Shown: positions 20,275 to 60,056, numbered from the stretch's first letter. The stretch: DNA of 64,000 nucleotides from Armatimonadota bacterium (GCA_039811685.1 JBDHZC010000003.1:160001-224000); one strand, 5' to 3'. Notes: generated from the sequence alone by a model not told the origin. Numbers and translations: made by a program.

Positions 20275-22887
20275 ATGACCGACTACGAAGTTCTGGATAT
20301 CTCTGGTTTTTGCAGTGCGGGGGCAGACGTGCGTACGCAGGTGGACTATGAGCCTGCCGCCTGGCCGACGGACTACCGCGGAATTCCTTTTCGCTTCGTT
20401 CCAGATATGAAGTCGTGCTTTGTGTGCCTCGGGCGCCGGCCGGATAGCTCAGCGGTGGGCGCCAGCAAGATATCAATCCCCATCGGCAAGACAGCCAGAA
20501 ACGTCATCTTCGCCCACGCGATGCTGGAGAGTTTTCTGGAGCGCGGAGACAGTCTTGGCCGTACTGTGGGAATCTACACGTTCGTGTACGCGGATGGAAG
20601 CAGCGTCGAGGCGCCAATTCGGGAGCGCTTCGAGATTGCCGCTATTCCAATTCCCTGGGGCTTCCTGCCGTTCGCTTCGCTCCCGGACGGGCGCGACGGC
20701 CTGCACACGCGGGGGCCTGTTCCGCCGGGTGAGGCCGGAAATCGCCAGCAGGAGGTAGGGTTGGGATGGCCCGGAGACTACTATCTGTGGGTCTGGGAGA
20801 ACCCGCGGCCGGAAGTTCCTCTGGATCGTGTTGAGCTGAGAGCCGCCGAGCCTTCGGAGCGTTCACCGGGCCGGGCGGATGCGCTTGGACCGCACAGCCA
20901 GACGCTGGACGAATACGGTAACTTTCCCTTGCCAGGCTTCGTCGTCGGGGCCATCACTCTCGGGCATCTCGACGAGAAGCCGTTTCATCAGAGCGCGGCT
21001 GTTCCTGTGAAGCTGACTCTGCTCAGCCCGGAGCTCGCTCAGAAAAACTTCAACCTCGACGTTACTGTTGATCGAGGTGTCGCAACCTACGTCTACGCCT
21101 TGCCACTGGAGACTCCGGTCGCCTTTCTGGCGAGCGGCCACGCCGGATTCGGCGAGGAACAGAATCTGACAAGTTCGCCTGCGTACGTGGAGATCGCAGC
21201 GACGCCGTCAGCGACTCTCACCGTCAAGCAGGGCGAAGATGAAATTGCACAGGCGAATTGGGGTGAGATCGAGTCCAGGGGCAGCGTCGAGACGGAGCGC
21301 GTCAGAATCGAAGTCATTGAAAGCGGCCGAAACTGGGTGCATACCACCGTTCTGGATGCCGATACCGGAAAACCCGTTCCCTGCCGCATCCACTTTCGCT
21401 CACCACACGGCGTTCCGTACCAGCCGCACGGCCACCACGGGCACGTCAACTCAAATCTCGGAACCTGGCACATAGACATCGGCGGCGACGTGCGCCTGTC
21501 TCAGATTACCTACGCCTACATTGACGGAAAGTGTCAGGGCTGGCTACCCCGTGGTGAGGTCATCGTGGATGCCGCGCGGGGGTACGAATACGAACCACTG
21601 CGCCAGACTGTGACCATCCAGCCTGGACAAAGAGAGCTGACTCTTCGCCTGAAACGCAAGCACAACCTCAACGCCGAGCGCTACTTCAGCGGGGATACGC
21701 ACGTCCACTTTCTGTCTTCGCAGGGCGCGCTGCTGGAAGCGTCCGGCGAAGACCTGGACGTCGTCAACCTCCTTCAGTCCCAGTGGGGACATCTGTTCAC
21801 CAACACCGAAGAGTTCACCGGGAAGCCCCACGTTTCGGGTGACAAAGAGACGATCGTCTATGCAACGCAGGAAAACCGCCAGCACATTCTCGGGCACCTT
21901 ACGCTGCTCGGTCTGAAGGAGCCTGTCATGCCCTGGTGTTCTGATGGTCCGGGCGAGGCCGAAATGGGAGGGAATCTGGAAACGACCCTGTCCCGCTGGG
22001 CGGACGTATGCCACGCTCAGGGTGGCACCGTCGTTATCCCTCACATGCCCAATCCGAACGCAGAGCCCGCTGTGCTCATAGCGACAGGCCGCGCAGACGC
22101 TGTCGAGATGATTGCGCAGAACATGTTCTTGCACGTGGACTATTACCGCTATCTGAACGCCGGATACCGCTTGCCCATCACAGGCGGGACCGACAAGATG
22201 GACGCGGGTGTTCCGGTGGGTCTGTACCGCACGTACGCCTGGATCCCGCCGGACGAGGAGTTCACTTATGACAACTGGTTGAAGGCCCTTCGCAGCGGAA
22301 ACACCTTCATCTCCGGAGGACCGCTGCTGCGCTTCAAAGTGAACGGACAGACGATGGGTTCAACCATTCATCTTGGCAGGGATGGGGGCACTCTCGACGT
22401 GGAGTGTAGCGCGTCGAGCATCATTCCTGTCCATACGCTGCAGATTGTGCAGGGCGGGGAGGTAGTCGCGCATACGCAGGAATCTGCGGGTGCGAAAGAA
22501 TTGACGCTGCGCGCGCAACTGAAGATAGACGGATCCACCTGGCTGTGCGCGCGCTGTGGGGGACCGGATTATCACATCGAATCCGCACCAGCAGGAAAGG
22601 CAGTGCGGCACTTTGACTCGTGGCGGCGCGCGGTGTGCGCGCATACGTCTCCCGTTTACATCCAGGTAGGCGAAACCTACGACGTCTGTAGCCCCGCTTC
22701 ACTCCAATACATGCTGACGCTTGTGGATGGCAGCCTGCAGCACATTCGTCGCGCGCCTCAGTGGAAGCCCGGGCACGTCACGCATCACCACCACTCCCAC
22801 GACCATCTAGAATATCTGGAGGGTCCACTGCGCGAGGCGGCTCAGGCCATCCACAAGAAGATGCACGAGCACGGAATCCCGCACTAG
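20275..22887 (+). CDS. CehA/McbA family (PHP-like) metallohydrolase
   Basis: SGDTHVH, QENR..LGH, PH, YYRYLNAG, GGTD, LRSGNTFISGGP, AHTSPVY. Confidence 0.8.
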   Translation: MTDYEVLDISGFCSAGADVRTQVDYEPAAWPTDYRGIPFRFVPDMKSCFVCLGRRPDSSAVGASKISIPIGKTARNVIFAHAMLESFLERGDSLGRTVGIYTFVYADGSSVEAPIRERFEIAAIPIPWGFLPFASLPDGRDGLHTRGPVPPGEAGNRQQEVGLGWPGDYYLWVWENPRPEVPLDRVELRAAEPSERSPGRADALGPHSQTLDEYGNFPLPGFVVGAITLGHLDEKPFHQSAAVPVKLTLLSPELAQKNFNLDVTVDRGVATYVYALPLETPVAFLASGHAGFGEEQNLTSSPAYVEIAATPSATLTVKQGEDEIAQANWGEIESRGSVETERVRIEVIESGRNWVHTTVLDADTGKPVPCRIHFRSPHGVPYQPHGHHGHVNSNLGTWHIDIGGDVRLSQITYAYIDGKCQGWLPRGEVIVDAARGYEYEPLRQTVTIQPGQRELTLRLKRKHNLNAERYFSGDTHVHFLSSQGALLEASGEDLDVVNLLQSQWGHLFTNTEEFTGKPHVSGDKETIVYATQENRQHILGHLTLLGLKEPVMPWCSDGPGEAEMGGNLETTLSRWADVCHAQGGTVVIPHMPNPNAEPAVLIATGRADAVEMIAQNMFLHVDYYRYLNAGYRLPITGGTDKMDAGVPVGLYRTYAWIPPDEEFTYDNWLKALRSGNTFISGGPLLRFKVNGQTMGSTIHLGRDGGTLDVECSASSIIPVHTLQIVQGGEVVAHTQESAGAKELTLRAQLKIDGSTWLCARCGGPDYHIESAPAGKAVRHFDSWRRAVCAHTSPVYIQVGETYDVCSPASLQYMLTLVDGSLQHIRRAPQWKPGHVTHHHHSHDHLEYLEGPLREAAQAIHKKMHEHGIPH

Positions 22888-22913
22888 ACTTCTGCGGAGA
22901 GTGCGCCGCTTAC

Positions 22914-22941
22914 CATCCCTCCAGGTTTCCCAACCTGGAGG
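22914..22941 (+). repeat. REP-like hairpin family A, copy 1
   Basis: CATCCCTCCAGGTTTCCCAACCTGGAGG, followed by AGGAGGTG-7nt-GTG. Confidence 0.85.
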
Positions 22942-22995
22942 TCCGCCGGGCAGGAGGTGAGGACGGGTGGCTGATCGAAGGAAGCTCTAGGTATT

Positions 22996-23029
22996 TCATC
23001 CCTCCAGGTTTCCCAACCTGGAGGGATGA
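22996..23029 (+). repeat. REP-like hairpin family A, copy 2 (perfect 15-bp stem)
   Basis: TCATCCCTCCAGGTT-TCCC-AACCTGGAGGGATGA. Confidence 0.9.
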
Positions 23030-23062
23030 CCCTGCCTTGTCCGGGTTCTGGAAGTCTCAATG

Positions 23063-23090
23063 TCCAACCCTCACATTCCGAAATACCTAC
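23063..23090 (-). repeat. GTAG-footed repeat family C, left copy
   Basis: TCCAACCCTCACATTCCGAAATACCTAC is the near reverse complement of GTAGGTATTTCGGGATTTGAAGGTTGGA at 23615. Confidence 0.8.
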
Positions 23091-23143
23091 GGTGCAGGCA
23101 GTTGTAGTGGCTGGGATCGGTCCTATACGTGGTAGTCAGCGCG

Positions 23144-23605
23144 ATGCGTGAAAACAGCGAGGCACTCGTCGCGGGGCTGGCGTTGGCGGCTGTGCTGCAG
23201 TCCTCCATCTTCTACTTCCAGCTTTGGCGGCCACGCCTGGAGCGCATGCGGCTGCTGCAGGGCCGTAGTGTTCTTAGCCAATGGGAACTGGCGGAGCTTT
23301 TTGCCATCGCCGGCGCATCAGGGCTGTCAGTAGCGGCGAACTTAGCCGTGATCGGCAGATACCTTCACGTGCACTCTGGTTGCCTCAGGCCGACAGATAG
23401 ACTGGCCGACTTATACTGCGTGTCCCCTTTTGCCATCAAGTACATAGGCTTAATAGACTCCGACATCTTTCGCTGCAAAGAAGCGATACGGGACCGGGTC
23501 GAGCGCCAGCACCGCTTTCGTACCTGTCTGGTGGGGGATGTAGTGGAGCAACTGCCGCTTTCCGTACTGCTAAGCGGCCTTGAGCAGCAGAGCGTTCGCC
23601 TGTGA
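23144..23605 (+). CDS. Hypothetical membrane-anchored protein (immunity-like cargo)
   Basis: N-terminal TM; lies between the inverted family-C repeats; alternative GTG start at 23129. Confidence 0.55.
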   Translation: MRENSEALVAGLALAAVLQSSIFYFQLWRPRLERMRLLQGRSVLSQWELAELFAIAGASGLSVAANLAVIGRYLHVHSGCLRPTDRLADLYCVSPFAIKYIGLIDSDIFRCKEAIRDRVERQHRFRTCLVGDVVEQLPLSVLLSGLEQQSVRL

Positions 23606-23614
23606 ACTGAGGCT

Positions 23615-23698
23615 GTAGGTATTTCGGGATTTGAAGGTTGGACGTGAGAACCATCACATCTCTGGGGAGTTACGGCTCCAACCTGGAAATCCCGAAAT
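23615..23698 (+). repeat. GTAG-footed repeat family C, right copy (long hairpin)
   Basis: GTAGGT-ATTTCGGGATTTGAAGGTTGGA ~34-nt loop TCCAACCTGGAAATCCCGAAAT. Confidence 0.8.
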
Positions 23699-23750
23699 GA
23701 GGGGGACGCCGTGAAATGGAAGAGCATTGACACTGGCGCAGGCTGCTACT
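23699..23750 (+). pseudogene. 5' remnant of a second RAYT-like gene (SD + GTG + KWKSIDTGAGCY)
   Basis: GAGGGGG-ACGCC-GTG AAA TGG...; 34 bp identical to 25307..25340, which continues into a RAYT-like N-terminus. Confidence 0.6.
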
Positions 23751-23761
23751 GCGTCTTACTG

Positions 23762-23792
23762 CCTCCAGGTTCGGAACCCTGGATGGATGAAA
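23762..23792 (-). repeat. REP-like hairpin family A, degenerate reverse copy
   Basis: CCTCCAGGTTCGGAACCCTGGATGGATGAAA. Confidence 0.75.
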
Positions 23793-23963
23793 AGACTCGA
23801 TCTTTTCGACTGCAGAGCAGGGGGACCAACCGGATGGTTCAACCCTTACATGGGGGAGAACATGGAGTACAATGCTCTGGGCACGCTGTGTGGATACAAC
23901 GTGTTCCAATCCTGTGACAATTGTTGTAAGAGCCTGTGCGGCTGTGTCTTTGGACACTGGTGA
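23793..23963 (+). pseudogene. Orphan Cys-rich C-terminal fragment (toxin-tip-like)
   Basis: ...LCGYNVFQSCDNCCKSLCGCVFGHW*; no convincing native start after the repeat; stop lies 1 nt before the lipoprotein ATG. Confidence 0.45.
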
Positions 23964-23964
23964 C

Positions 23965-24324
23965 ATGAGAATCTTACGCGTTTTTCTTGTCTTGCTCACC
24001 GCCGGCATAGCCGTTTGTGGTTGCGCTCAACGGTCTCGCCCGCCGTCCGGCGATATTCCATACTACGTGACGCTTGTCGGCCACCCACGTTCAGACGTGG
24101 ACCGAATCATGAGGCTGGGCGGTGGCCAGTACGTGCGTAGCTACAAATCAGAGAAGGAGTTTGCCGCGTTCAAGCGTACGATCTCTCCGCTGACGGACAA
24201 GACGCTGGACGGGGAGGTTATGCAGTACCACCTTGGAGGCGACCTTGGCAATGGGGTCTTACTGGTCTTCTTGGACCACCGGGGCACGGTTACGGCCATT
24301 CATTGGGCCGTCGACCGATTCTAA
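23965..24324 (+). CDS. Small hypothetical lipoprotein (immunity-like)
   Basis: MRILRVFLVLLTAGIAVCGC lipoprotein signal; 119 aa; tightly coupled to the upstream Cys-rich tail. Confidence 0.7.
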   Translation: MRILRVFLVLLTAGIAVCGCAQRSRPPSGDIPYYVTLVGHPRSDVDRIMRLGGGQYVRSYKSEKEFAAFKRTISPLTDKTLDGEVMQYHLGGDLGNGVLLVFLDHRGTVTAIHWAVDRF

Positions 24325-24331
24325 GGAGCCA

Positions 24332-24406
24332 AATGGAGAGTTGGTAGCCAGAGCCTACCCCAGCGGAGGAGGGCAGTACTACTTCTTCGACTGGCTGGGC
24401 TCGACC
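24332..24406 (+). pseudogene. RHS-core fragment
   Basis: NGELVARAYPSGGGQYYFFDWLGST resembles the RHS core YYxxDxLGS motif. Confidence 0.55.
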
Positions 24407-24457
24407 ATCGCGCATGCGCCATTAACGGAAGGGACACGCACGGATCGTCTGTATTTC

Positions 24458-24485
24458 CATCCCTCCAGGTGTCCTCACCTGGAGG
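24458..24485 (+). repeat. REP-like hairpin family A, copy with compensatory stem change
   Basis: CATCCCTCCAGGTG-TCCT-CACCTGGAGG (a G-C pair replaces T-A). Confidence 0.85.
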
Positions 24486-24558
24486 AGGCGACGGGACGGA
24501 CTTAGGTACGTACGCCTGGTAACCCGCTGGGAGCCAGCGGGACCGGAGGAGGCTTTCA

Positions 24559-24624
24559 GATGCTGCGGGAATGGCAAACCTCACCAGCGTGTCGACTGAC
24601 TGAAACTGAAATTCCCGCAGCCAC
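24559..24624 (+). repeat. Long palindromic repeat family B, left flank of RAYT
   Basis: GATGCTGCGGGAAT...ATTCCCGCAGCCAC. Confidence 0.85.
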
Positions 24625-24667
24625 TCCGGACTCACCGTGCAGCCGGCGGCTGTGGTATCATAGCCTC

Positions 24668-25276
24668 GTGAGCAACCAGCGCTACCGGAACAGCTACATC
24701 GACGGGTGCTCCCACTTCGTAACAGCGAGCGTCGCCGGCTTCGCGCCGCTTCTGGCGTCCGATACCGGGCGGCAGACGGTTCTGCGATCGTGGAGCCACT
24801 GCCGGGGCAGGTATGGTGTCCTGATCGAGGGCTTCGTGATCATGCCGGAGCACATTCATGTCCTTGTGCGAGGGAAGGCGAAGCCTGTCGAACAATTCAT
24901 CCAGTACAGCCTGCAGCGTTCGGCACGTCATCTGCGGGAAGTATATGTCGCCGCGGCACGGGGTGGTGACCCGGCTGCGGCAGCGCTGGTGGAGCACATA
25001 CACAGTCTGGGTCGGGTCTGGAAGGAGCGGGCGCGCTGCGTGGCGCTGTCGCGGGCCGAAGATGTGCTGGGGAAGCTCGAGTACATGCACAACAACCCGG
25101 TGAAGCGCGGGCTGGTGGTGGCGCCGGGCCAGTGGGCGTGGTCGAGTTGGGCAAACTACTACGGCGGTGAGCCGGTGCTGGAGATCACGCCTGCTCTGGG
25201 CTTCGACGAACCGGTGACCCTCGCGGCGTCGCAGGTGGCTGCGGGAATTGAGGCCAGTGGAGGACGAGGGGCATGA
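24668..25276 (+). mobile_element. REP-associated tyrosine transposase (RAYT/TnpA-REP, Y1 HUH family)
   Basis: HFVT near the N-terminus, HUH motif VIMPEHIH, KLEYMHNNPVKRGLV...WAWSS with catalytic Tyr; flanked by inverted family-B repeats; no tnpB. Confidence 0.9.
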
Positions 25277-25300
25277 GAAGTCTGTCATTCCCGCAGCATC
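25235..25300 (-). repeat. Long palindromic repeat family B, right flank of RAYT (inverted, overlaps gene end)
   Basis: GTGGCTGCGGGAAT...TGTCATTCCCGCAGCATC. Confidence 0.85.
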
Positions 25301-25306
25301 AAAAAG

Positions 25307-25410
25307 TGGAAGAGCATTGACACTGGCGCAGGCTGCTACTATTTCACCAGCGCCTGCTCGGAGTGGCTCCCAACCTTGGACCTCCCGGACGGATGCGACA
25401 CAGTGTGCGT
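25307..25410 (+). pseudogene. Truncated N-terminus of a second, divergent RAYT
   Basis: WKSIDTGAGCYYFTSACSEWLPTLDLPDGCDTVC aligns without gaps to the intact RAYT's YRNSYIDGCSHFVTASVAGFAPLLASDTGRQTVL. Confidence 0.6.
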
Positions 25411-25456
25411 TTTCAAAGTATTGACTGCCGGCGCTTTAATACGAGGGAGGCCGAAG

Positions 25457-25579
25457 GTGAAGAGAAGAAATGAACGGCTATGGGACCAGATTCTGCTGTG
25501 GCTTATGCTGCTTGCCATGCTGGCAATTGCGGCGTCAATCATGGTACCTGCCTACCGCCTTACGCTTGAAAGTCGGTAG
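25457..25579 (+). CDS. Possible 40-aa single-TM peptide or truncated membrane gene
   Basis: GGGAGG SD before GTG 25457; KRRNERLWDQILLWLMLLAMLAIAASIMVP. Confidence 0.35.
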   Translation: MKRRNERLWDQILLWLMLLAMLAIAASIMVPAYRLTLESR

Positions 25580-25749
25580 TGCACCCCAGGTAGAGCCGTC
25601 AGGCTCAGGAGCCGGCGTCCGGCTCTGCGGCGACGGACATTGATTGGGAGTGGTCAAGCGCCAGAGCGTATGCCAGGCAGCAGACGGTGGAGACCGACGA
25701 TAGCCTTGACGCACTTAGCGGGGGATGAGACTATGACTACGACCTTTGG

Positions 25750-25778
25750 CCTCCAGGTTGGGAAACCTGGAGGGATGA
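25750..25778 (-). repeat. REP-like hairpin family A, exact reverse copy
   Basis: CCTCCAGGTTGGGAAACCTGGAGGGATGA. Confidence 0.9.
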
Positions 25779-25799
25779 GGTAGCAATCATTATGGACGA

Positions 25800-26207
25800 G
25801 TGGGGGCTGTGACGACGGCGACAATTGACCAGGACGAGGCCGCCAAGCTGGACGCTCTGCAACGCGAGTTGAGTTGTTCTCGGCGACTCCGTTTGCGCTC
25901 CGTACTTGTTGCTATCTTCTTCTTTCCGATTGTCCTGCTGGTATTCTTCATTGAACGCCGACCCGCGGTTTCGCTGCTGATGTTTCTGATCTTTGTCGTC
26001 TACGGGACCAATGCGCTACAGCCGGTGGCCTCTCACTCAGCGCTTCGGATTCTGAAAACGCTACGACCTTCTCGTGATAGCCGCACAGTGAGTGTTCTGT
26101 TCGATGCTATGCAGTATTACTCTCTCGCACCAGCAGCCAAGGAACAGCTTATGCGACTGCTTTTGGAGGGCGACGGTTATGATGCTCACGATCAGCAGCC
26201 ACCTTGA
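25800..26207 (+). CDS. Hypothetical 2-TM membrane protein (immunity-like; possibly 3'-truncated)
   Basis: Two hydrophobic helices followed by a short helical segment; immediately downstream of a family-A repeat. Confidence 0.55.
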   Translation: MGAVTTATIDQDEAAKLDALQRELSCSRRLRLRSVLVAIFFFPIVLLVFFIERRPAVSLLMFLIFVVYGTNALQPVASHSALRILKTLRPSRDSRTVSVLFDAMQYYSLAPAAKEQLMRLLLEGDGYDAHDQQPP

Positions 26208-26208
26208 C

Positions 26209-26440
26209 GTTGCCAAGTGGTATGACCCGGCGGGCAATCGGCGGCCAGCCAGCGACCACAGGTACAATACGTATAACGCGGCAGACATGTTGCTGGCGAA
26301 CGGCCTGAACGGCGATACGCTCTCCGGAAGTGGGCGATCCAACGTCTGGGATTCGCAGAAACGGCTTGCGTAGAACCGCCACCTTGGGTGGCGTCATGAC
26401 GCAGTGCATCCTCGACGGGCAGAGCGTAGTGCAGGAGATA
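26209..26440 (+). pseudogene. RHS/YD-repeat fragments
   Basis: YDPAGNR...YNAADML...NGDTLSGSGRSNVWDSQKRL*, then in another frame ILDGQSVVQE; YD-repeat-like patterns with deletions and stops. Confidence 0.65.
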
Positions 26441-26444
26441 TTTA

Positions 26445-26616
26445 GACGCTGCGGGAATGGCAAATCTCGCCAGCGTGTCGGGCGACTGGAAACCGAAATT
26501 CCCGCAGCATCAAAAAGGAGGGGGACGCCGTGGAGTGGAAGAGCATTCAGATGCTGCGGGAATGGTGAATCTCACCGTTGTGACGAACGACTGGAAACCG
26601 AAATTCCCGCAGCATC
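26445..26616 (+). repeat. Tandem pair of family-B palindromes (26445..26511, 26550..26616) separated by a RAYT 5' remnant
   Basis: GA(C/T)GCTGCGGGAATGG...GACTGGAAACCGAAATTCCCGCAGCATC twice; spacer AAAAAGGAGGGGGACGCCGTGGAGTGGAAGAGCATT. Confidence 0.88.
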
Positions 26617-26652
26617 AAGAGCGCCGGATGAAAGGCTGCGCTTGCAGACCGG

Positions 26653-27330
26653 TCACGGCGAGGACGGCCGCAGGCGCCATTCTCGTTTGATATGCTTTGA
26701 GAGGATGACACGGTACGCGGGATGGTAGGCTCTCGCGTAAACCTCGGTGTGGCTGACTGCAGGATACCCGGCCTTCTTCATTCGCGTGTCCAGCTCTTGC
26801 CAGTCCTCGAACGTTATCTGCATTATCCGGCGCTTTTTCAGTCGCTCTCCGAGAAGCTGCCACTGCTTGATAAAGCCGGTTTTATCTGCGCGGAACTCGT
26901 TTGCTGATGCGAGGAACGCCGCCAGCACGGCTTCCTCCGAAATCCCCTGTGCTTTGGCCACTGCCAGGTTCAAGCGAACGAGTCGGCCGTCGGGCCTGAG
27001 CGCGACGATGAGCTTCTCGCCGGGATCGGGCTTGCGGAGGCCGTTCCACTCTCTGTCCAGCCAGGCGCGCGCGCCCTCAGGGTCGGATACAGCGTGTTCG
27101 CCGCCCATATTCGCCTGAAACAGCCACTTGTAGGCATCCTGCACCTGCATCGAGGGCGTGCTCTTCCATGCCTTCACATACCAGTCCAGGCCCGGTGCGC
27201 AGGCGACAGCACCGGGCAGAATCAGGCAGAAGAGTATTGCTGTCAAGAGAGGTTTCGTGTTGACCACGTTTTTGCTTTTCGCTTTGGAGCTCGCTGGAAC
27301 GAACGGGTCGAGGGACATGCGCCCTCCCAC
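26653..27330 (-). CDS. Conserved hypothetical exported protein
   Basis: Signal-like hydrophobic stretch; QDAYKWLFQANMGGEH...PAVSHTEVY...YHPAYRV look like conserved motifs; start uncertain (27318 or 27267). Confidence 0.7.
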   Translation of the reverse strand: MGGRMSLDPFVPASSKAKSKNVVNTKPLLTAILFCLILPGAVACAPGLDWYVKAWKSTPSMQVQDAYKWLFQANMGGEHAVSDPEGARAWLDREWNGLRKPDPGEKLIVALRPDGRLVRLNLAVAKAQGISEEAVLAAFLASANEFRADKTGFIKQWQLLGERLKKRRIMQITFEDWQELDTRMKKAGYPAVSHTEVYARAYHPAYRVILSKHIKREWRLRPSSP

Positions 27331-27370
27331 CTGTCTACTTTCTTGACCTTCGCCATCTGGAATGTGTTTT

Positions 27371-27434
27371 CATCCCTCCATGTTTCCCAACCCGGAGGCC
27401 CATCGCGCGGGCAGGAGGTGAGGTCGAGTGGCTG
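27371..27434 (+). repeat. REP-like hairpin family A plus SD/GTG tail; degenerate direct repeat of 22914..22973
   Basis: CATCCCTCCATGTTTCCCAACCCGGAGG...GGGCAGGAGGTGAGGTCGAGTGGCTG. Confidence 0.8.
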
Positions 27435-27469: not shown

Positions 27470-30400
27470 TCAGCCAGCCGAAATCGCGGCCGTGTTGTTC
27501 TCTTCGTCGCGCTCAAATACCGCGTCATCCGGATCGAGCCGCACGCGGAGATGACTTCTGCTCGCACCTTCGGGCAAGGGAAGGCTGACGACAACCGTGC
27601 TCAGGGTCAGGTTGCGCGGGCTTGCCAGCGCCTTCACGGGATGCGACGAAAGCTGTTTCCATGCCCCGCCGCTTTGCTGCTCCAGCGCGACTCTGAAGGC
27701 AGAGGACGGTGCGTTCCCAATGTTGTGCACAGTAATGTATAGCTTTTGTCCTCTAACTTGAATATCACGAGTCGCGATAGCCAGATCCGGCGCCTTCACT
27801 GGAATTGTGGCGGCCTCATCGAGGCGAAGGTCAATCTCGTACTCCTTGCCTGGGGGAAGCTCAACGTAAACTGGCTGCGCCCGGTGCAGAATTTTCATCT
27901 TCTGGCGCGGACCCCAAGCGTACCGGTGTTGTCCTGCGTGCTCTCCGCCCAGGACGCGGCCTGTCATCAGGATGTATGTCCCGGGCTTCAGCAGCCACGG
28001 ACGCAGAGCGATCTTCTTCGTCTCCTTCCAGAACGAGTACATCCGTATGCGCAGGCGCTGGGGTGTGCTTTCGGTCACCAGAGCGGCAAAACCGGTGTCG
28101 GGTGTGACGTAGGTCACGGCAAAAGTTGGAGTGGACGCGTCGCGCAGCCCCTCTACTGCTCCGGTGTAGGCGCCAAAGACCGTGAGCGCATTATTCAGCG
28201 CTGCGCGGTCAGTGGACAAAACCTCGGTTGTCTGCAACTCCAGGTTGGTTCTGTTCGCCTCGGCAGTTCGTTGAAAGCTGCGCATATAGCGGTCCAGATT
28301 GTAGTCGGTCCGGTAAATCTGAGCGGGATCACCAAAGCGTCGCGTGTACTCGTCATAGACCCGCTCTCCCGTGAGATAGCGATACAGCGCTGTCTTGTTG
28401 GGATCGGCCATGCTCGCCATCGCCAGATTACAGTACTCAACCGTTCCTGGCGCGGGATTTCCTGAAGGCAGCGGCCCGAGCGTCGCCCCATCCATCAGAA
28501 GCTGAAAAGGCTTCAAAAACGTCCTGTCTCCACTTAGCGCATAGGCGCACAGGATTGCGTCGTGGATCATTGTTCCCATCTGCCCGTAGTAGTTGCGTTT
28601 TTGGTCCCACCACGGATATCCGCCGGGAGGAGAGATGGATCCGGACGGATACCAGAGGCTTTCAGGAGGCAGGCCGGGCAGCTTCGTATCGCTTTTCGAG
28701 CTGGTCGCTGCGGCCCAACCCTTGCACCATCGGAGGAACCAGTCTCTGGCCACCGGATCACCCTGCCATGCCTGCCAGATGAGGTGCTTCATCGTGCGCG
28801 CGTTGTAGCCGGTATCACCTCCGGCCTGCGGCTGGGTGTGTACCCCGTTCCATCCATACTCGCTGGACTTGAACCGCGGATAGCCTTTCGCGTCAATACC
28901 CAGAAAGCGCTCAATAATCGTCTTGCACGATCTCATGTTGCGCTCCACCCAGAGCGGGTCCCCATAGCGCAGAAAAAGCATCGTGGGCAGCGTATCCGCA
29001 GACGGCTCAGCCGAGTGCTCCACATCCCCCACCTTGTCAAAACCATCCTTCAATACAGACTTCCAGACGCCATCAGCAAGCTTCTCAATGCCGGCCTGGG
29101 CTTGTGTGGCTCCAGTCGAGATTGCGGCGATTTGCATCCAGGTGCGCATCAGCTCGACATCGTCTCCCCAGCCACCACCAAGCTGTCCATCCGGCGCCTG
29201 GCGCTTCTCGAACCAGACATCCATAAGCCGCACCTGCCGCGCGTAGGCTTCGTGAAGATAAGCCGCCCATGCAGGATGACGCTGCGTATCTGCGTTCAAC
29301 TCCTCTCCCCACGGAATCGTCTCGCCCGTGTACTCCCGAAGGATCACATTTTCTGGCCACAGCTTCTTCAGATCACGCATCCAGCCCACAGCTTCACCAA
29401 CCACCTCGTTGTTACCGCCCTCCTTTCCGTCCCAGTAGCGGTAGCGGGCCTTGTACAGCAGGGCCTTGTAGTAGAAGGGATTGTTCTCACGACCCAGAGC
29501 CACAAGTCGCGACGCCGATATTTTGCCGCTGCGCGCCATTTTCAGGTCCGCAAACCATCCTGATGCTGTGGCCAATGCGGATATCGCAGGGTTTTCCGGA
29601 CTCTTGCTCAGCAGCCGCTGCCAGGCCCGCGCCACTTCGGCTAACTCACCTGTCCGGTCGCTCTCCTGAAAACGCAGGTCGCCTGCCACATAGGACCACC
29701 CGGCCATTCCGATCAGCGTGTCCGCATGGGCCTGGAAATCGTGCAACGCGTCGGCTATCTGACCCCTGTTGAACTTATCAATCGCCGCCGAAGCCCAGGC
29801 AGGGCCATCTCCGGGGCTGTCCAGCGCCAGCTCTCTTCCTTCCCGGCTAATAGGGAGACGTGGAAGGCTTTCGAGGTATTCAGGCGTTCCCGCTGCAGGT
29901 GTTACCCGTTCATAGACGCGCACGTTGTCTGCGTACAATCCAGCCCAGGTCACAATACCGGCGCGGTCAAAGCCGGGTCCACCCAGTGGGTCCCGCACCG
30001 TTGCGTGAACGAGAACTTTCCCGTTGACCCTCAGGGTGAGCTCCCGGCCCTCCTTGGTGGCGGAAATGTGGTAGGTTTCCCCCTGCCGGATCAGCACCTT
30101 CGGATGCTGGTCAACCACGCTGAACCCGGGCCCCACAATCTGATTCACGCGGTTATTCTGGCCGCCGAACGCCAGCAGATACCTGTATCCGTACTCTGAA
30201 CTGGCCGCCAGTCCCGCCGACAGATCAACCGGCGGATAGCGAGGGTCAGCCTCCGCGTCAAACTCAAGTCGTACGTCGGGCTTGAATCCGCGGTCAATTA
30301 TCGCAAAGACGCCGCTGCCGGTGAGATGCAGGCGTCCGTTTTCAATGCTGATCTCTCCGTTCACAGCCTTCCATTCCAGACCAACTTCGTCCCTTTGAAA

Positions 30401-30517
30401 ATCGTCACTCCAAACCAGTTTCCATTGCGCATTATCGTGCCTGATCTCCGTCTGAGAGAGCGCTGCGAACGGATGGAGCCACATTACTAACATCAGAAGA
30501 TAAAGAGCACTCTTCAT
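27470..30517 (-). CDS. Large secreted protein: ConA/LamG-like N-domain, alpha/alpha-barrel-like core, CARDB-like C-domain
   Basis: Signal peptide; WKLVWSDDF; core motifs GGGWGDDVE and DVEHSAE; PDLAI...TVHNIG...LDPDDAVFERDEENN (CARDB). Confidence 0.7.
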   Translation of the reverse strand: MKSALYLLMLVMWLHPFAALSQTEIRHDNAQWKLVWSDDFQRDEVGLEWKAVNGEISIENGRLHLTGSGVFAIIDRGFKPDVRLEFDAEADPRYPPVDLSAGLAASSEYGYRYLLAFGGQNNRVNQIVGPGFSVVDQHPKVLIRQGETYHISATKEGRELTLRVNGKVLVHATVRDPLGGPGFDRAGIVTWAGLYADNVRVYERVTPAAGTPEYLESLPRLPISREGRELALDSPGDGPAWASAAIDKFNRGQIADALHDFQAHADTLIGMAGWSYVAGDLRFQESDRTGELAEVARAWQRLLSKSPENPAISALATASGWFADLKMARSGKISASRLVALGRENNPFYYKALLYKARYRYWDGKEGGNNEVVGEAVGWMRDLKKLWPENVILREYTGETIPWGEELNADTQRHPAWAAYLHEAYARQVRLMDVWFEKRQAPDGQLGGGWGDDVELMRTWMQIAAISTGATQAQAGIEKLADGVWKSVLKDGFDKVGDVEHSAEPSADTLPTMLFLRYGDPLWVERNMRSCKTIIERFLGIDAKGYPRFKSSEYGWNGVHTQPQAGGDTGYNARTMKHLIWQAWQGDPVARDWFLRWCKGWAAATSSKSDTKLPGLPPESLWYPSGSISPPGGYPWWDQKRNYYGQMGTMIHDAILCAYALSGDRTFLKPFQLLMDGATLGPLPSGNPAPGTVEYCNLAMASMADPNKTALYRYLTGERVYDEYTRRFGDPAQIYRTDYNLDRYMRSFQRTAEANRTNLELQTTEVLSTDRAALNNALTVFGAYTGAVEGLRDASTPTFAVTYVTPDTGFAALVTESTPQRLRIRMYSFWKETKKIALRPWLLKPGTYILMTGRVLGGEHAGQHRYAWGPRQKMKILHRAQPVYVELPPGKEYEIDLRLDEAATIPVKAPDLAIATRDIQVRGQKLYITVHNIGNAPSSAFRVALEQQSGGAWKQLSSHPVKALASPRNLTLSTVVVSLPLPEGASRSHLRVRLDPDDAVFERDEENNTAAISAG

Positions 30518-30599
30518 AGCGCCTAAGGATACCACATGGGAGACGCACAGTTCTCTATCTCGGGGAATGTGGTTTCAAGCGGTATCACAAGTCGTCAGC

Positions 30600-30660: not shown

Positions 30661-31461
30661 GTGGCTTTTTCAAGAAATCTGCGGCTCTATGCCTGGTCCG
30701 CGCCCTTCAGACGGTCGTCTAAGGGTTTCACGCTGATAGAGTTGTTAGTGGTGATTGCGATCATCGCTATTCTGGCTGCCATTCTGTTCCCTGTGTTCTC
30801 ACGCGTGCGCATGCGCGCCAACGTCGCGAAGTGCACCAGCAACATGGCGCAGCTTGCCAAGGCCATGGTCATGTATGCCAATGACAACAAGGGCTATCTT
30901 CCAACTCCGGGGTGGAGTGGAGACTGGCCGAACTGGGCAGGATGCAAACCTCCGCAGGCGACTGCGCAGATGCCGAAGGCCAACTGGGTCTATCCAGAGG
31001 CCGGACAGATCTGGCCGTACGTGAAAGCTGCCAGGGTCTATCTTTGTCCGCAGGATGTGAAGAGGGCCGCTAACCCGGACTACTGGGATCCGCCGGCTGG
31101 TAAGTCCATCAAGGACATGCCGTTGTCCTACTCTATGAACGGCCGCTTTTCAACGGGAAATCCGGACGGTAGCGGGGCTACACCGATGGACAGCGTGCGT
31201 GGAAATATTGACCCTGCGCAGATAATGCTGCTCATTCAGGAGGCTCGAAACCGGGAAGATACCTCCCCGGTAGTCTGGTCTGCTGGAATGAATGATTCGG
31301 TGTTTGATGCGCACCCGGGCAACTTACAGGACAATCCGAACCACGTGCACTACGACGGTACATGTGTAGCCTACCTGGACGGTCACGCGAAATGGAAGCC
31401 GTACAAGCAGCTCGATACAGAGCACAGAAATGGGCAATGGATGCCCTATTCGCGGTATTGA
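30661..31461 (+). CDS. Prepilin-type N-terminal cleavage/methylation protein with H-X9-DG C-terminal motif (DUF1559-like)
   Basis: [46 protein letters not shown]. Confidence 0.9.
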   Translation: MAFSRNLRLYAWSAPFRRSSKGFTLIELLVVIAIIAILAAILFPVFSRVRMRANVAKCTSNMAQLAKAMVMYANDNKGYLPTPGWSGDWPNWAGCKPPQATAQMPKANWVYPEAGQIWPYVKAARVYLCPQDVKRAANPDYWDPPAGKSIKDMPLSYSMNGRFSTGNPDGSGATPMDSVRGNIDPAQIMLLIQEARNREDTSPVVWSAGMNDSVFDAHPGNLQDNPNHVHYDGTCVAYLDGHAKWKPYKQLDTEHRNGQWMPYSRY

Positions 31462-31620
31462 TATAATTCTATTCGCAGGAGTTGTGTTTCAGTGATGAGG
31501 CATTTTTCAGTTACAAGGCATTGGAATCGCGGTTTTAGACAAGCACGGACAATCTGCACAACTGATTGGGCGATGCGTGCTTCCGGTCAAAGCTCTATTG
31601 GCCTGATCTCTCCTGGCCGG

Positions 31621-32343
<723 letters not shown>

Positions 32344-59123: not shown

Positions 59124-60056
59124 TTGAGTCAACCGAGCGACGTCTCCGGCGCCGAGAGATTTTTTCACGCCGCCGCTTCGGGCGCAACAGCTCAACTAGC
59201 TGAACTCCTGCAACAACATCCCGAGTTGGTAAATGAGCGGGATGAACGCGGCCACACGGCCCTTCACCTTGTTGCACTCGGTGGGTGGAGCGCCGACGCT
59301 AACAGCGACTATGTCGAGGCGGCGAAGACACTGCTTGACGCTGGCGCAGATGTAGGTGCGCCTGCCAGTCACGAAAGCCTGGGAGACTCCAGCCCGCTGA
59401 TACTGGCTGCTTGTGGGGGAGGTCAGGATGCCGGATTGGCCCGTCTCTTGCTGGAGCGCGGCGCAGACCCAAACGCCACAAGCAGTGAAGGCGTGACGGC
59501 TTTGCAGGCTGCTGCAGAGCGCGGGGCACGGGCGATCTGCGACCTGTTGCTTACAAAAGGAGCCGAGCTAGATATTCACTCGGCGGCTGCGCTCGGGATG
59601 CGTCAACAGGTGCGTGAGATGTTGCGCAATGACGATGCACTTGCGCGAGAGAAAGACCGTTATCGCCGCGCGACTCCGCTCTACTACGCAGCGCTGCACA
59701 ATCAGAAAGAGATTGCGCAGCTTCTTCTGAACTTTGAAGCGGACATCAATGCCACAACGAACATGGGGAATACCGCTGTTCATGTGGCGTCTGCGGCTCC
59801 TGCGCGCCGGACCCTTGAGCTTCTGTTGGACAACGGTGGGGACGTGAACGCGCGCAACTACAAACTCCAGACTCCCCTGCACTATGCCGTTGAGGAGTGG
59901 TGGGCGGAGGGCTCAGAAACGGTCCGGCTGCTCATCGAGCGCGGCGCCAATGTCAGCGCAAAGGACGAAACCCGCCAGACTCCGCTTGCCAAAGCCCTTG
60001 CCCGGAACAAACTGCACATTGCTGAGATTCTTCGGGCTTCCGGCGCCAGAGATTGA
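59124..60056 (+). CDS. Ankyrin repeat protein
   Basis: Repeated TALH/TPLY/TAVH/TPLH...LL..GADxN. Confidence 0.92.
   Translation: MSQPSDVSGAERFFHAAASGATAQLAELLQQHPELVNERDERGHTALHLVALGGWSADANSDYVEAAKTLLDAGADVGAPASHESLGDSSPLILAACGGGQDAGLARLLLERGADPNATSSEGVTALQAAAERGARAICDLLLTKGAELDIHSAAALGMRQQVREMLRNDDALAREKDRYRRATPLYYAALHNQKEIAQLLLNFEADINATTNMGNTAVHVASAAPARRTLELLLDNGGDVNARNYKLQTPLHYAVEEWWAEGSETVRLLIERGANVSAKDETRQTPLAKALARNKLHIAEILRASGARD

Follow-up and report, generated by a model that had tools for sequence, protein, structure and literature searches.

The analysed window is a stretch of 64,000 nucleotides (nt) of genomic DNA from an Armatimonadota bacterium (G000:C3:160001-224000). An island in this window, located between the stop codon of a CehA/McbA-type hydrolase gene (22887) and a conserved minus-strand gene (26653-27330), contained a tyrosine transposase of the kind linked to repetitive extragenic palindromes, or REPs (a RAYT), hairpins of three repeat families and pieces of an RHS toxin/immunity locus. 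The G+C content fell to 0.52-0.58 in the island and was about 0.60 in the flanks. The genome of the window (3.42 Mb in 15 contigs, 97% complete) was labelled G000; other G labels likewise denote genomes, and G004 and G002 belong to a sister genus. The relatives set consisted of 40 genomes, and the genus of the window was represented by G000 alone. Membership in the Armatimonadota was also indicated by the closest RAYT homologues and by pilin-like neighbors.

The initial annotation had placed one intact RAYT in the island, and this was borne out. RAYT1 (24668..25276, plus strand, 202 aa) occupied an open reading frame (ORF) at 24560-25276 with an inferred GTG start at 24668 and had a codon score of 0.24; for reference, true genes had a mean of 0.255 and a 5th percentile of 0.079, and the 95th percentile of shadow ORFs was 0.172. 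RAYT1 covered the NCBIfam REP_Tyr_transpos profile (NF047646) over its full length (1-146/146) with 76.5 bits at a curated cut-off of 80, matched Pfam Y1_Tnp weakly, and reached 18.1 bits against the NCBIfam IS200 equivalog, for which the cut-off is 55. Its HUH (HIH) and Tyr-x-x-x-NPV motifs aligned to those of E. coli TnpA-REP (PDB 4ER8). This Y1 HUH transposase was the only enzyme in the island, and no integrase-type tyrosine recombinase was detected in family searches. A second RAYT, RAYT2, was 30% identical to RAYT1; its gene, on contig C5, had C hairpins and A copies around it, the repeat families described below. One full copy of each gene was present genome-wide, together with at least five 5' scraps of RAYT genes and further 3' scraps. 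In the island, RAYT2 5' scraps followed hairpins at three places: at 23695-23750, at 25304..25441 (plus strand), where 46 codons were retained that agreed with the C5 copy of RAYT2 at 64% of 36 aa, and at 26514-26547, where 34 nt lay between B hairpins 3 and 4. RAYTs were found in 24 of the 40 relatives.

All three palindromic repeat families described in the initial annotation were recovered in the island (six A copies, four B hairpins, and a C hairpin with a half-arm), and the degenerate ~60-nt direct repeat said to bound it proved real. The family A core was CCTCCAGGTT-4 nt-AACCTGGAGG with the tail CATCC; six matches were obtained in the 64-kb window, all of them in 22914-27398, and none in 100 shuffles. 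Copy 1 (22914-22941, a shuffle-tested match) and copy 6, each with a 27-nt flank, formed the left (22914..22973) and right (27371..27434) bounding repeats, both on the plus strand and both located by repeat search. The agreement was 83% between 22914-22954 and 27371-27411 and 93% between 22947-22973 and 27408-27434, and the 27-nt part occurred twice in the genome, both times at the island edges. The bounding repeat also encloses the native gene at 26653-27330 along with the RHS relic. Copy 2 (22996..23029) was a perfect 15+4+15 palindrome with tails on both sides and a predicted single-stranded DNA (ssDNA) fold of -17.2 kcal/mol. Copies 3 (23762-23790, minus strand), 4 (24457..24485, plus) and 5 (25750..25778, minus) were located by repeat search and are among the six matches compared with shuffles.

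Family B had 14-bp stems, GATGCTGCGGGAAT...ATTCCCGCAGCATC, and a loop of ~38 nt. RAYT1 was flanked on both sides by B hairpins, one upstream (24559-24624, fold z -2.5) and one overlapping its 3' end (25235-25300, z -2.1), and two more were found at 26445..26616 (26445-26511, z -3.7, and 26550-26616, z -5.0). Family C was represented by a full hairpin (23621-23698) and by a half-arm (23062..23090, plus strand) that was 90% complementary to 23615-23643. When ssDNA folding was compared with that of shuffled sequences, the full hairpins had the better folds: z was -7.4 for A at 22990-23035 and -5.2 for the C hairpin, and the four B hairpins ranged from -2.1 to -5.0. The C half-arm (23055-23100, z -0.2) and A with its flank at 22908-22975 (z -1.7) were unremarkable. 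No Rfam family matched the island hairpins at E<=0.1. GTAG or CGTC tags characterise REPs; none was evident on families A and B.

The B core CTGCGGGAA flanked RAYT1 homologues in three of the four Armatimonadota metagenome-assembled genome (MAG) loci examined, where the closest homologues (45-51% identical) stood between inverted repeats that shared this core (CTGCGGGAAC/GTTCCCGCAG). Family B is therefore the cognate, conserved repeat of the RAYT1 clade. At 23617..23790 (plus strand), a composite was formed by the C hairpin, a ribosome site with the first ~13 RAYT2-type codons (23695-23750) and A copy 3 in minus orientation, and 23617-23750 was 92% identical to the 5' flank of RAYT2 on C5. The same composite (C hairpin, first ~40 nt of RAYT2, A) was observed at C10:2676-2852, C11:150-301 and C11:917-1055 with 87-92% identity, and RAYT2 3'-end scraps were observed with a C hairpin on C5, C9 and C1. 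The recurring C-hairpin/RAYT2-scrap units resemble derivatives that a RAYT2 element would give by internal deletion. A B hairpin with the first RAYT1-type codons was seen at C1:222784-222961 and C11:44540-44698 (75% over 159-176 nt), and in the first case a 3'-end scrap of the RAYT1 region followed directly after the B hairpin unit (C1:222963-223088, 70% over 126 nt).

To identify the cargo, the island was searched in six frames against 32 loci around the Rhs cores of relatives (282,861 nt). A putative Cys-rich toxin C-terminal domain, cut on the 5' side by family A, was represented at 23790..23963 (plus strand) by its final 58 codons; they matched the very C-end of an RHS toxin of G018, the match being weak (33% over 36 aa, pairwise E 4e-5). 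An intact small lipoprotein of 119 aa (23965..24324, plus strand, codon score 0.19) started 1 nt after this tail. When homologues of the cargo ORFs were sought beside RHS toxins, the lipoprotein matched (27% over 82 aa, E 4e-7) an ORF of G018 whose start lies 143 nt past an RHS toxin, within an array of five cores, and that toxin was the same one that matched the Cys-rich tail. The lipoprotein is a probable orphan immunity protein. Its language-model features were BamE/BLIP-like, a lead only. Next came the start of an RHS orphan module, that is, its pre-core region (24323..24457, plus strand), which family A truncates. Over 47 aa it was 57-60% identical, with a best E of 1.4e-12, to 19 orphan modules that carry a core in G004 and G002. 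Because of the G018 and G004/G002 alignments, we read 23790-24457 as a putative toxin tail, immunity gene and start of the following module.

A small ORF leading into a module start was seen again at 25800-26440. Here the first ORF was predicted to encode a membrane protein of 135 aa (25800..26207, plus strand, codon score 0.18) and held the immunity position directly before a second RHS pre-core fragment (26212..26440, plus strand), which was frameshifted and cut off by family B. The part at 26212-26370 was 65% identical over 58-60 aa (E 1e-21) to RHS modules of G004, and past the frameshift 26360-26440 was 78% identical over 27 aa; the module type of G004 that it matched differed from that matched by 24323-24457. 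On these alignments, both fragments are identified as true RHS fragments. The toxin parts were truncated or frameshifted and the immunity ORFs were open. The initial description of the cargo as a Cys-rich tail, a lipoprotein and RHS scraps was largely upheld by the matches to G018, G004 and G002, except for the minus-strand gene at 26653..27330. This gene encodes a conserved 225-aa protein (codon score 0.22) that was 72% identical in G004 and 71% in G002, both genomes of the sister genus; it is native and does not belong to the cargo.

The remaining ORFs gave little further information. The candidate gene at 23144..23605 (plus strand, 153 aa) lay between C elements and had an ambiguous codon score of 0.14; no match was obtained in Pfam, NCBIfam, PADLOC or PHROG, a search of 5.8 billion proteins returned the self-match only, and no related locus was found. 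A 34% match of it in G014 was rejected, the G014 side being a shadow frame of another gene. For 25800-26207, the self-match alone was returned among 1.84 billion representative proteins, and homologue searches with 23144-23605, 23965-24324 and 25800-26207 yielded only the proteins of the window itself. A 40-codon ORF with one hydrophobic helix was present at 25457..25579 (plus strand, codon score 0.22), and the longer ORF at 25376-25579 had no family match. No usable family assignment for the cargo ORFs came from Pfam, NCBIfam, PADLOC or PHROGs; a YaiO match was sub-threshold and fell on an out-of-frame ORF, and a match of 24365-24500 on contig C10 consisted merely of a shared A variant plus 12 nt. 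Genome-wide, the Rhs core (TIGR03696) was absent at E<=0.1 and RHS_repeat at E<=0.01. Pre-core fragments were present instead, and no full RHS gene. The Rhs core was found in 29 of the 40 relatives, often as arrays, with 25 matches in G004.

The initial annotation had proposed that a RAYT might capture or reshuffle immunity cassettes much as an integron does. In such a scheme, one or more RAYTs would cut and join ssDNA at the hairpins, and immunity cassettes bracketed by hairpins would be moved in this way, as by an HUH analogue of integrons or of recombinase-associated immunity islands (rAID). Some arrangements in the genome favored this proposal. Inverted A copies with tails inward bracketed 23790-24457, as they did around RAYT2 on C5; an A copy was located directly upstream, in equal relative orientation, in three cassettes (window 23790, window 25779 and C11 46632); and hairpin units occurred in multiple copies with 34-138 nt of adjacent RAYT gene sequence, and therefore the hairpins moved together with flanking DNA. 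However, every cargo ORF was single-copy in the genome, and the junctions held one to three elements, drawn from the three families and facing either way, instead of one site per cassette. The interval 23790-24457 holds a toxin tail together with the start of the next module, which argues for a random cut of an array and not for a defined unit.

When families A, B and C were mapped across the genome and compared with the position of RHS pieces, as the initial annotation had envisaged, they proved to be low-copy and clustered. We counted 21 A palindromes, 25 B arm matches (about 14 hairpins) and ~30 clustered C arms; another 25 single C matches were seen, and ~22 were expected by chance in our own calculation. 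The hairpin elements were extragenic, few, and clustered rather than dispersed, with nine clusters of at least three hairpin matches occupying together 25.5 kb, or 0.75% of the genome. RHS remnants were sought in an unbiased tblastn search of the whole genome with 63 RHS-motif ORFs as queries; ankyrin and non-RHS N-terminal matches were removed first. Six RHS-specific pieces at four loci were recovered (window 24323-24457, window 26212-26440, C1:81333-81665, C1:82204-82392, C10:2398-2676 and C11:46163-46632). All six ended 0-87 nt from a hairpin, four of them within 7 nt, and the RHS homology ended at the hairpin itself. The probability that four loci placed at random would all stand beside hairpins was about 3e-9 to 3e-8. 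Neither repeats scattered without any tie to RHS cargo nor cargo unconnected with polymorphic toxin loci, two outcomes that the initial annotation had named as refuting it, were observed. On contig C11 (C11:46089-46632, equal to L026:5089-5632), the last 39 toxin codons were followed by an intact 159-aa membrane ORF, with A at the truncation and a B hairpin downstream. The tail was 59% identical to the matching toxin, and the ORF was 38% identical over 118 aa to an immunity ORF of G004.

Matches of RHS-array ORFs at window 59124-60056 and at C9:40.6-41.8k were discarded as generic ankyrin repeats. The former encodes a 310-aa ankyrin-repeat protein, generically like the ankyrin ORFs inside the RHS arrays of relatives. 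The N-terminal 450 residues of one RHS protein also matched large proteins elsewhere; these matches were not RHS-specific and were dropped.

Among the relatives, 36 loci (32 with an Rhs core and four with a flank gene) carried no family A, no RAYT and at most one loose C match (L229), which counts against active capture. The family A core was found in none of five same-family genomes and gave single matches in the genomes of eight unrelated species, neither count being informative. Of 80 RAYT loci from other phyla, only one had an RHS-like neighbor, and in the 40 relatives a RAYT match lay no more than 2 kb from an Rhs core at two loci (G038 and G032), where a rough estimate of our own gave an expectation of ~0.6; both counts likewise speak against capture. 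The locus of the class-level relative G038 (L240:2957-10044, equal to G038:C1:4735956-4743043) was, by contrast, a point in its favor. An intact 1578-aa RHS protein was followed there by a 53-nt hairpin, a multi-helix membrane ORF of 203 aa, an identical hairpin, a partial RAYT and a full RAYT. The 53-nt hairpin had four copies in the 8.2-Mb genome, one of them beside another RAYT.

DNA of the organism recurred in sludge and bioreactor runs, where the stretch or part of it was found in 20 of 24 rows among the matches listed, from 12 studies. Contigs of four runs from four studies covered pieces of the island with no differences, one of them running from the CehA gene through the first hairpins to the ORF at 23144-23605; the identity of these pieces across studies gave no support to cassette movement. 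Six alternative joints were seen in the sludge contigs. Their sides were 22-32 nt with 90% likeness, they could be explained by the repeats, and none was accepted as a deletion. The recurring joint 23027>26490 had a 27-nt side and may reflect the A-then-B adjacency at C5 4630-4684. Rare variants are invisible in such contigs, and the parts of the island uncovered in some runs are not evidence of absence. In run X5, contigs over the flanking genes showed 14 differences from the window in 810 positions and 17 in 1717, and the four listed island pieces were identical to it, a pattern that could stem from a strain mixture or from a recent sweep of the island. Among metagenome contigs of JGI, the best CehA match was 65%, and none of 80 CehA loci held an island ORF.

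The observations above establish what the pieces are, that the RAYT and the hairpin families are present, and that these families lie together with RHS relics; a hairpin was present at every break between RHS-derived and other DNA. We consider it probable that the island is a relic RHS orphan array that was reduced to orphan immunity genes and was colonised and broken up by the REP-type hairpins of two RAYT elements. The ancestor would have been an RHS orphan toxin/immunity array of the kind that is large and intact in the sister genus. The lineage would then have lost every intact RHS gene, with two or three small intact immunity-type genes surviving next to the stubs of neighboring toxins (one tail and two orphan-module starts). 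The hairpins colonising this relic would derive from two Y1 HUH elements, RAYT1 with family B in the island itself and RAYT2 with families C and A elsewhere, the latter on another contig and represented in the island just by its 5' scraps. The hairpins are likely to have participated in the break-up, either by insertion into dispensable array DNA with later recombination between copies deleting the intervening DNA, or through direct cutting by a RAYT at the hairpins. Selection may have retained the immunity genes as a defence against the RHS toxins of neighbors. The order of events, the hairpin-mediated deletion and the immunity function are what we infer from the arrangement. The initial annotation had named, as its alternative, a decaying RHS locus passively invaded by REPs. 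Decay and invasion fitted the data better than capture, with one amendment: the position of the hairpins, right at the breakpoints, makes a purely passive invasion improbable.

Several observations weigh against this reading. No close relative was available, so that an ancestral RHS array at this site and its deletions are undemonstrated, and RHS was found in none of the 80 metagenome loci with a CehA homologue and in none of the four loci of G004 and G002 with a flank-gene homologue. Five of the nine hairpin clusters had no RHS remnant and carried other accessory genes, including RAYT2, Fic, an APH-family kinase, a methyltransferase, a CsgG-like protein and an IS110 transposase; hairpins bracketed a SoFic-like Fic/DOC gene (C11:46864-48021), an IS110-family transposase (C11:48239-49495), an APH-family phosphotransferase (C1:221651-222760) and a methyltransferase (C1:223143-223892). 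The toxin-tail match is weak, with 36 aa and a pairwise E-value only, and the cargo ORFs 23144-23605 and 25800-26207 had no homologue in any search, position being the sole argument for a putative immunity role of the latter. The two RHS starts are ordered as expected of separate modules, and their origin in a single array is unproven. Finally, the association between hairpins and RHS is tighter than simple decay predicts, leaving room for an active role.

Among the other explanations, the one that survives best, itself an unlikely one, is that hairpins and RHS relics both simply persist where the genome is dispensable and tolerates recombination, which holds for few regions, and that the hairpins neither broke the genes nor serve them. 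The accessory genes and the IS110 transposase housed in hairpin clusters and the lowered G+C content of the island fit this explanation, and passages of PMC3116915 and PMC3337134 describe the clustering of REPs. However, the ends of all six RHS pieces at or near hairpins, where the homology stops, are hard to explain unless the hairpins mark break points. It is still less probable that the hairpins were recruited to stabilise or terminate the transcripts of orphan immunity genes, or to supply expression signals after loss of the toxin promoter. A hairpin did follow every small ORF of the island, and REPs are credited with roles in mRNA turnover in a passage of PMC3479197. However, none of the four terminator-like sites detected was an A, B or C hairpin, their number was that expected by chance (3.6 in shuffles), and the RAYT gene scraps are unaccounted for by such a function.

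A RAYT/hairpin system specific to RHS arrays, stripping toxin parts and leaving bracketed orphan immunity genes or moving cassettes as single-stranded units, was entertained because of the link of all six RHS pieces to hairpins, the multi-copy hairpin units with flanking DNA and the G038 locus; in either form it would be the counterpart of integrons and rAID built on an HUH transposase, and we regard it as quite improbable. Integron-like capture or shuffling by a RAYT, which draws on the same three observations and on the orientation of the A copies, was given the lowest probability of all in view of the single-copy cargo, the mixed junctions, the sampled RHS loci of relatives free of family A and RAYT, and the lack of well-supported joints in the contigs.

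On the left, the island is flanked by the gene of the CehA/McbA-family metallohydrolase (20275..22887, plus strand, 870 aa; NF038032, 151.9 bits), whose homologue in G004 was 65% identical yet stood in a different genomic context. On the right, a secreted 1021-aa protein with a CARDB domain, assigned by a library domain match, is encoded at 27470..30535 on the minus strand and was 53-58% identical in seven of the 40 relatives. The G004 counterparts of the CehA, 225-aa and 1021-aa genes occupied three separate places. The adjacent genes 30661-31461 and 31492-32343 were the sole neighbors of the 1021-aa gene still found beside its homologue in G004; the first has a prepilin-type N-terminal methylation motif (Pfam), and the second matched the same stretch of G004 by tblastn.

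The role of RAYTs and REP hairpins for the cell is an open question, and the survival of orphan immunity genes past their toxins is partly understood; both subjects meet at this locus. It belongs to an organism recurring in activated-sludge runs of several studies, in which all RHS toxins appear to have been shed and immunity-type genes retained. Should hairpins cause toxin arrays to break up, they would provide a concrete means by which genomes are remodelled at conflict loci; should they move cassettes, genes would be captured in a new way. Under the plain reading as well, the locus documents REP/RAYT elements in the phylum Armatimonadota and offers substrates for RAYT biochemistry, with three hairpin families and two enzymes. 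A full-text literature search returned no paper connecting RAYT or REPIN with Rhs or polymorphic toxins, and the portions of bioRxiv 10.1101/2024.07.17.603846 that concern REPs and rhs genes cover them separately.

The island was compared with four known systems. With integrons and the Bacteroidales rAID it shares small co-oriented genes, some of them immunity-like, structured repeats and a DNA-breaking enzyme. Integrons and rAID use an integrase-type tyrosine recombinase, whereas an HUH Y1 transposase is present here, with three repeat families in mixed orientation and no cassette turnover seen in the contigs. IS200/IS605 elements and their hairpin-ended miniature derivatives are resembled in the position of RAYT2 on C5 between C hairpins and in the multi-copy units that join a C hairpin to ~40 nt from the start of the gene or ~70-95 nt from its end. 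Such insertion sequences differ in that each gene has a single full copy here, TnpB is absent, and the IS200 model scored 18.1 bits against 76.5 for the RAYT model. RHS orphan arrays of E. coli, Salmonella and Serratia have in common with the island the module starts homologous to pre-core regions, a putative toxin tail followed at 1 nt by an immunity-type ORF, and intact immunity ORFs without a working toxin; orphan Rhs immunity genes are reported in passages of PMC10539506 and PMC3150448. In contrast to those arrays, the island had no Rhs core or full RHS gene, and its modules were interrupted by hairpins and a RAYT.

The REP/REPIN-RAYT systems of Pseudomonas and E. coli (TnpA-REP) share with the island a Y1 HUH transposase matching the full profile, with its HUH and Tyr motifs and its own flanking hairpins, a hairpin core conserved around homologous RAYTs, and hairpins that are extragenic and clustered. 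The usual picture of REPs is one of hundreds of dispersed copies; here, about 14 B hairpins and 21 A palindromes were confined to nine clusters. REPINs are described in passages of PMC3116915 and PMC3337134 as REP doublets moved by RAYTs, and RAYTs, in a passage of PMC5581495, as typically single-copy. The genome of the window differs from these systems in having two diverged RAYTs, 30% identical to each other, each with its own hairpin family and accompanied by scraps of its gene.

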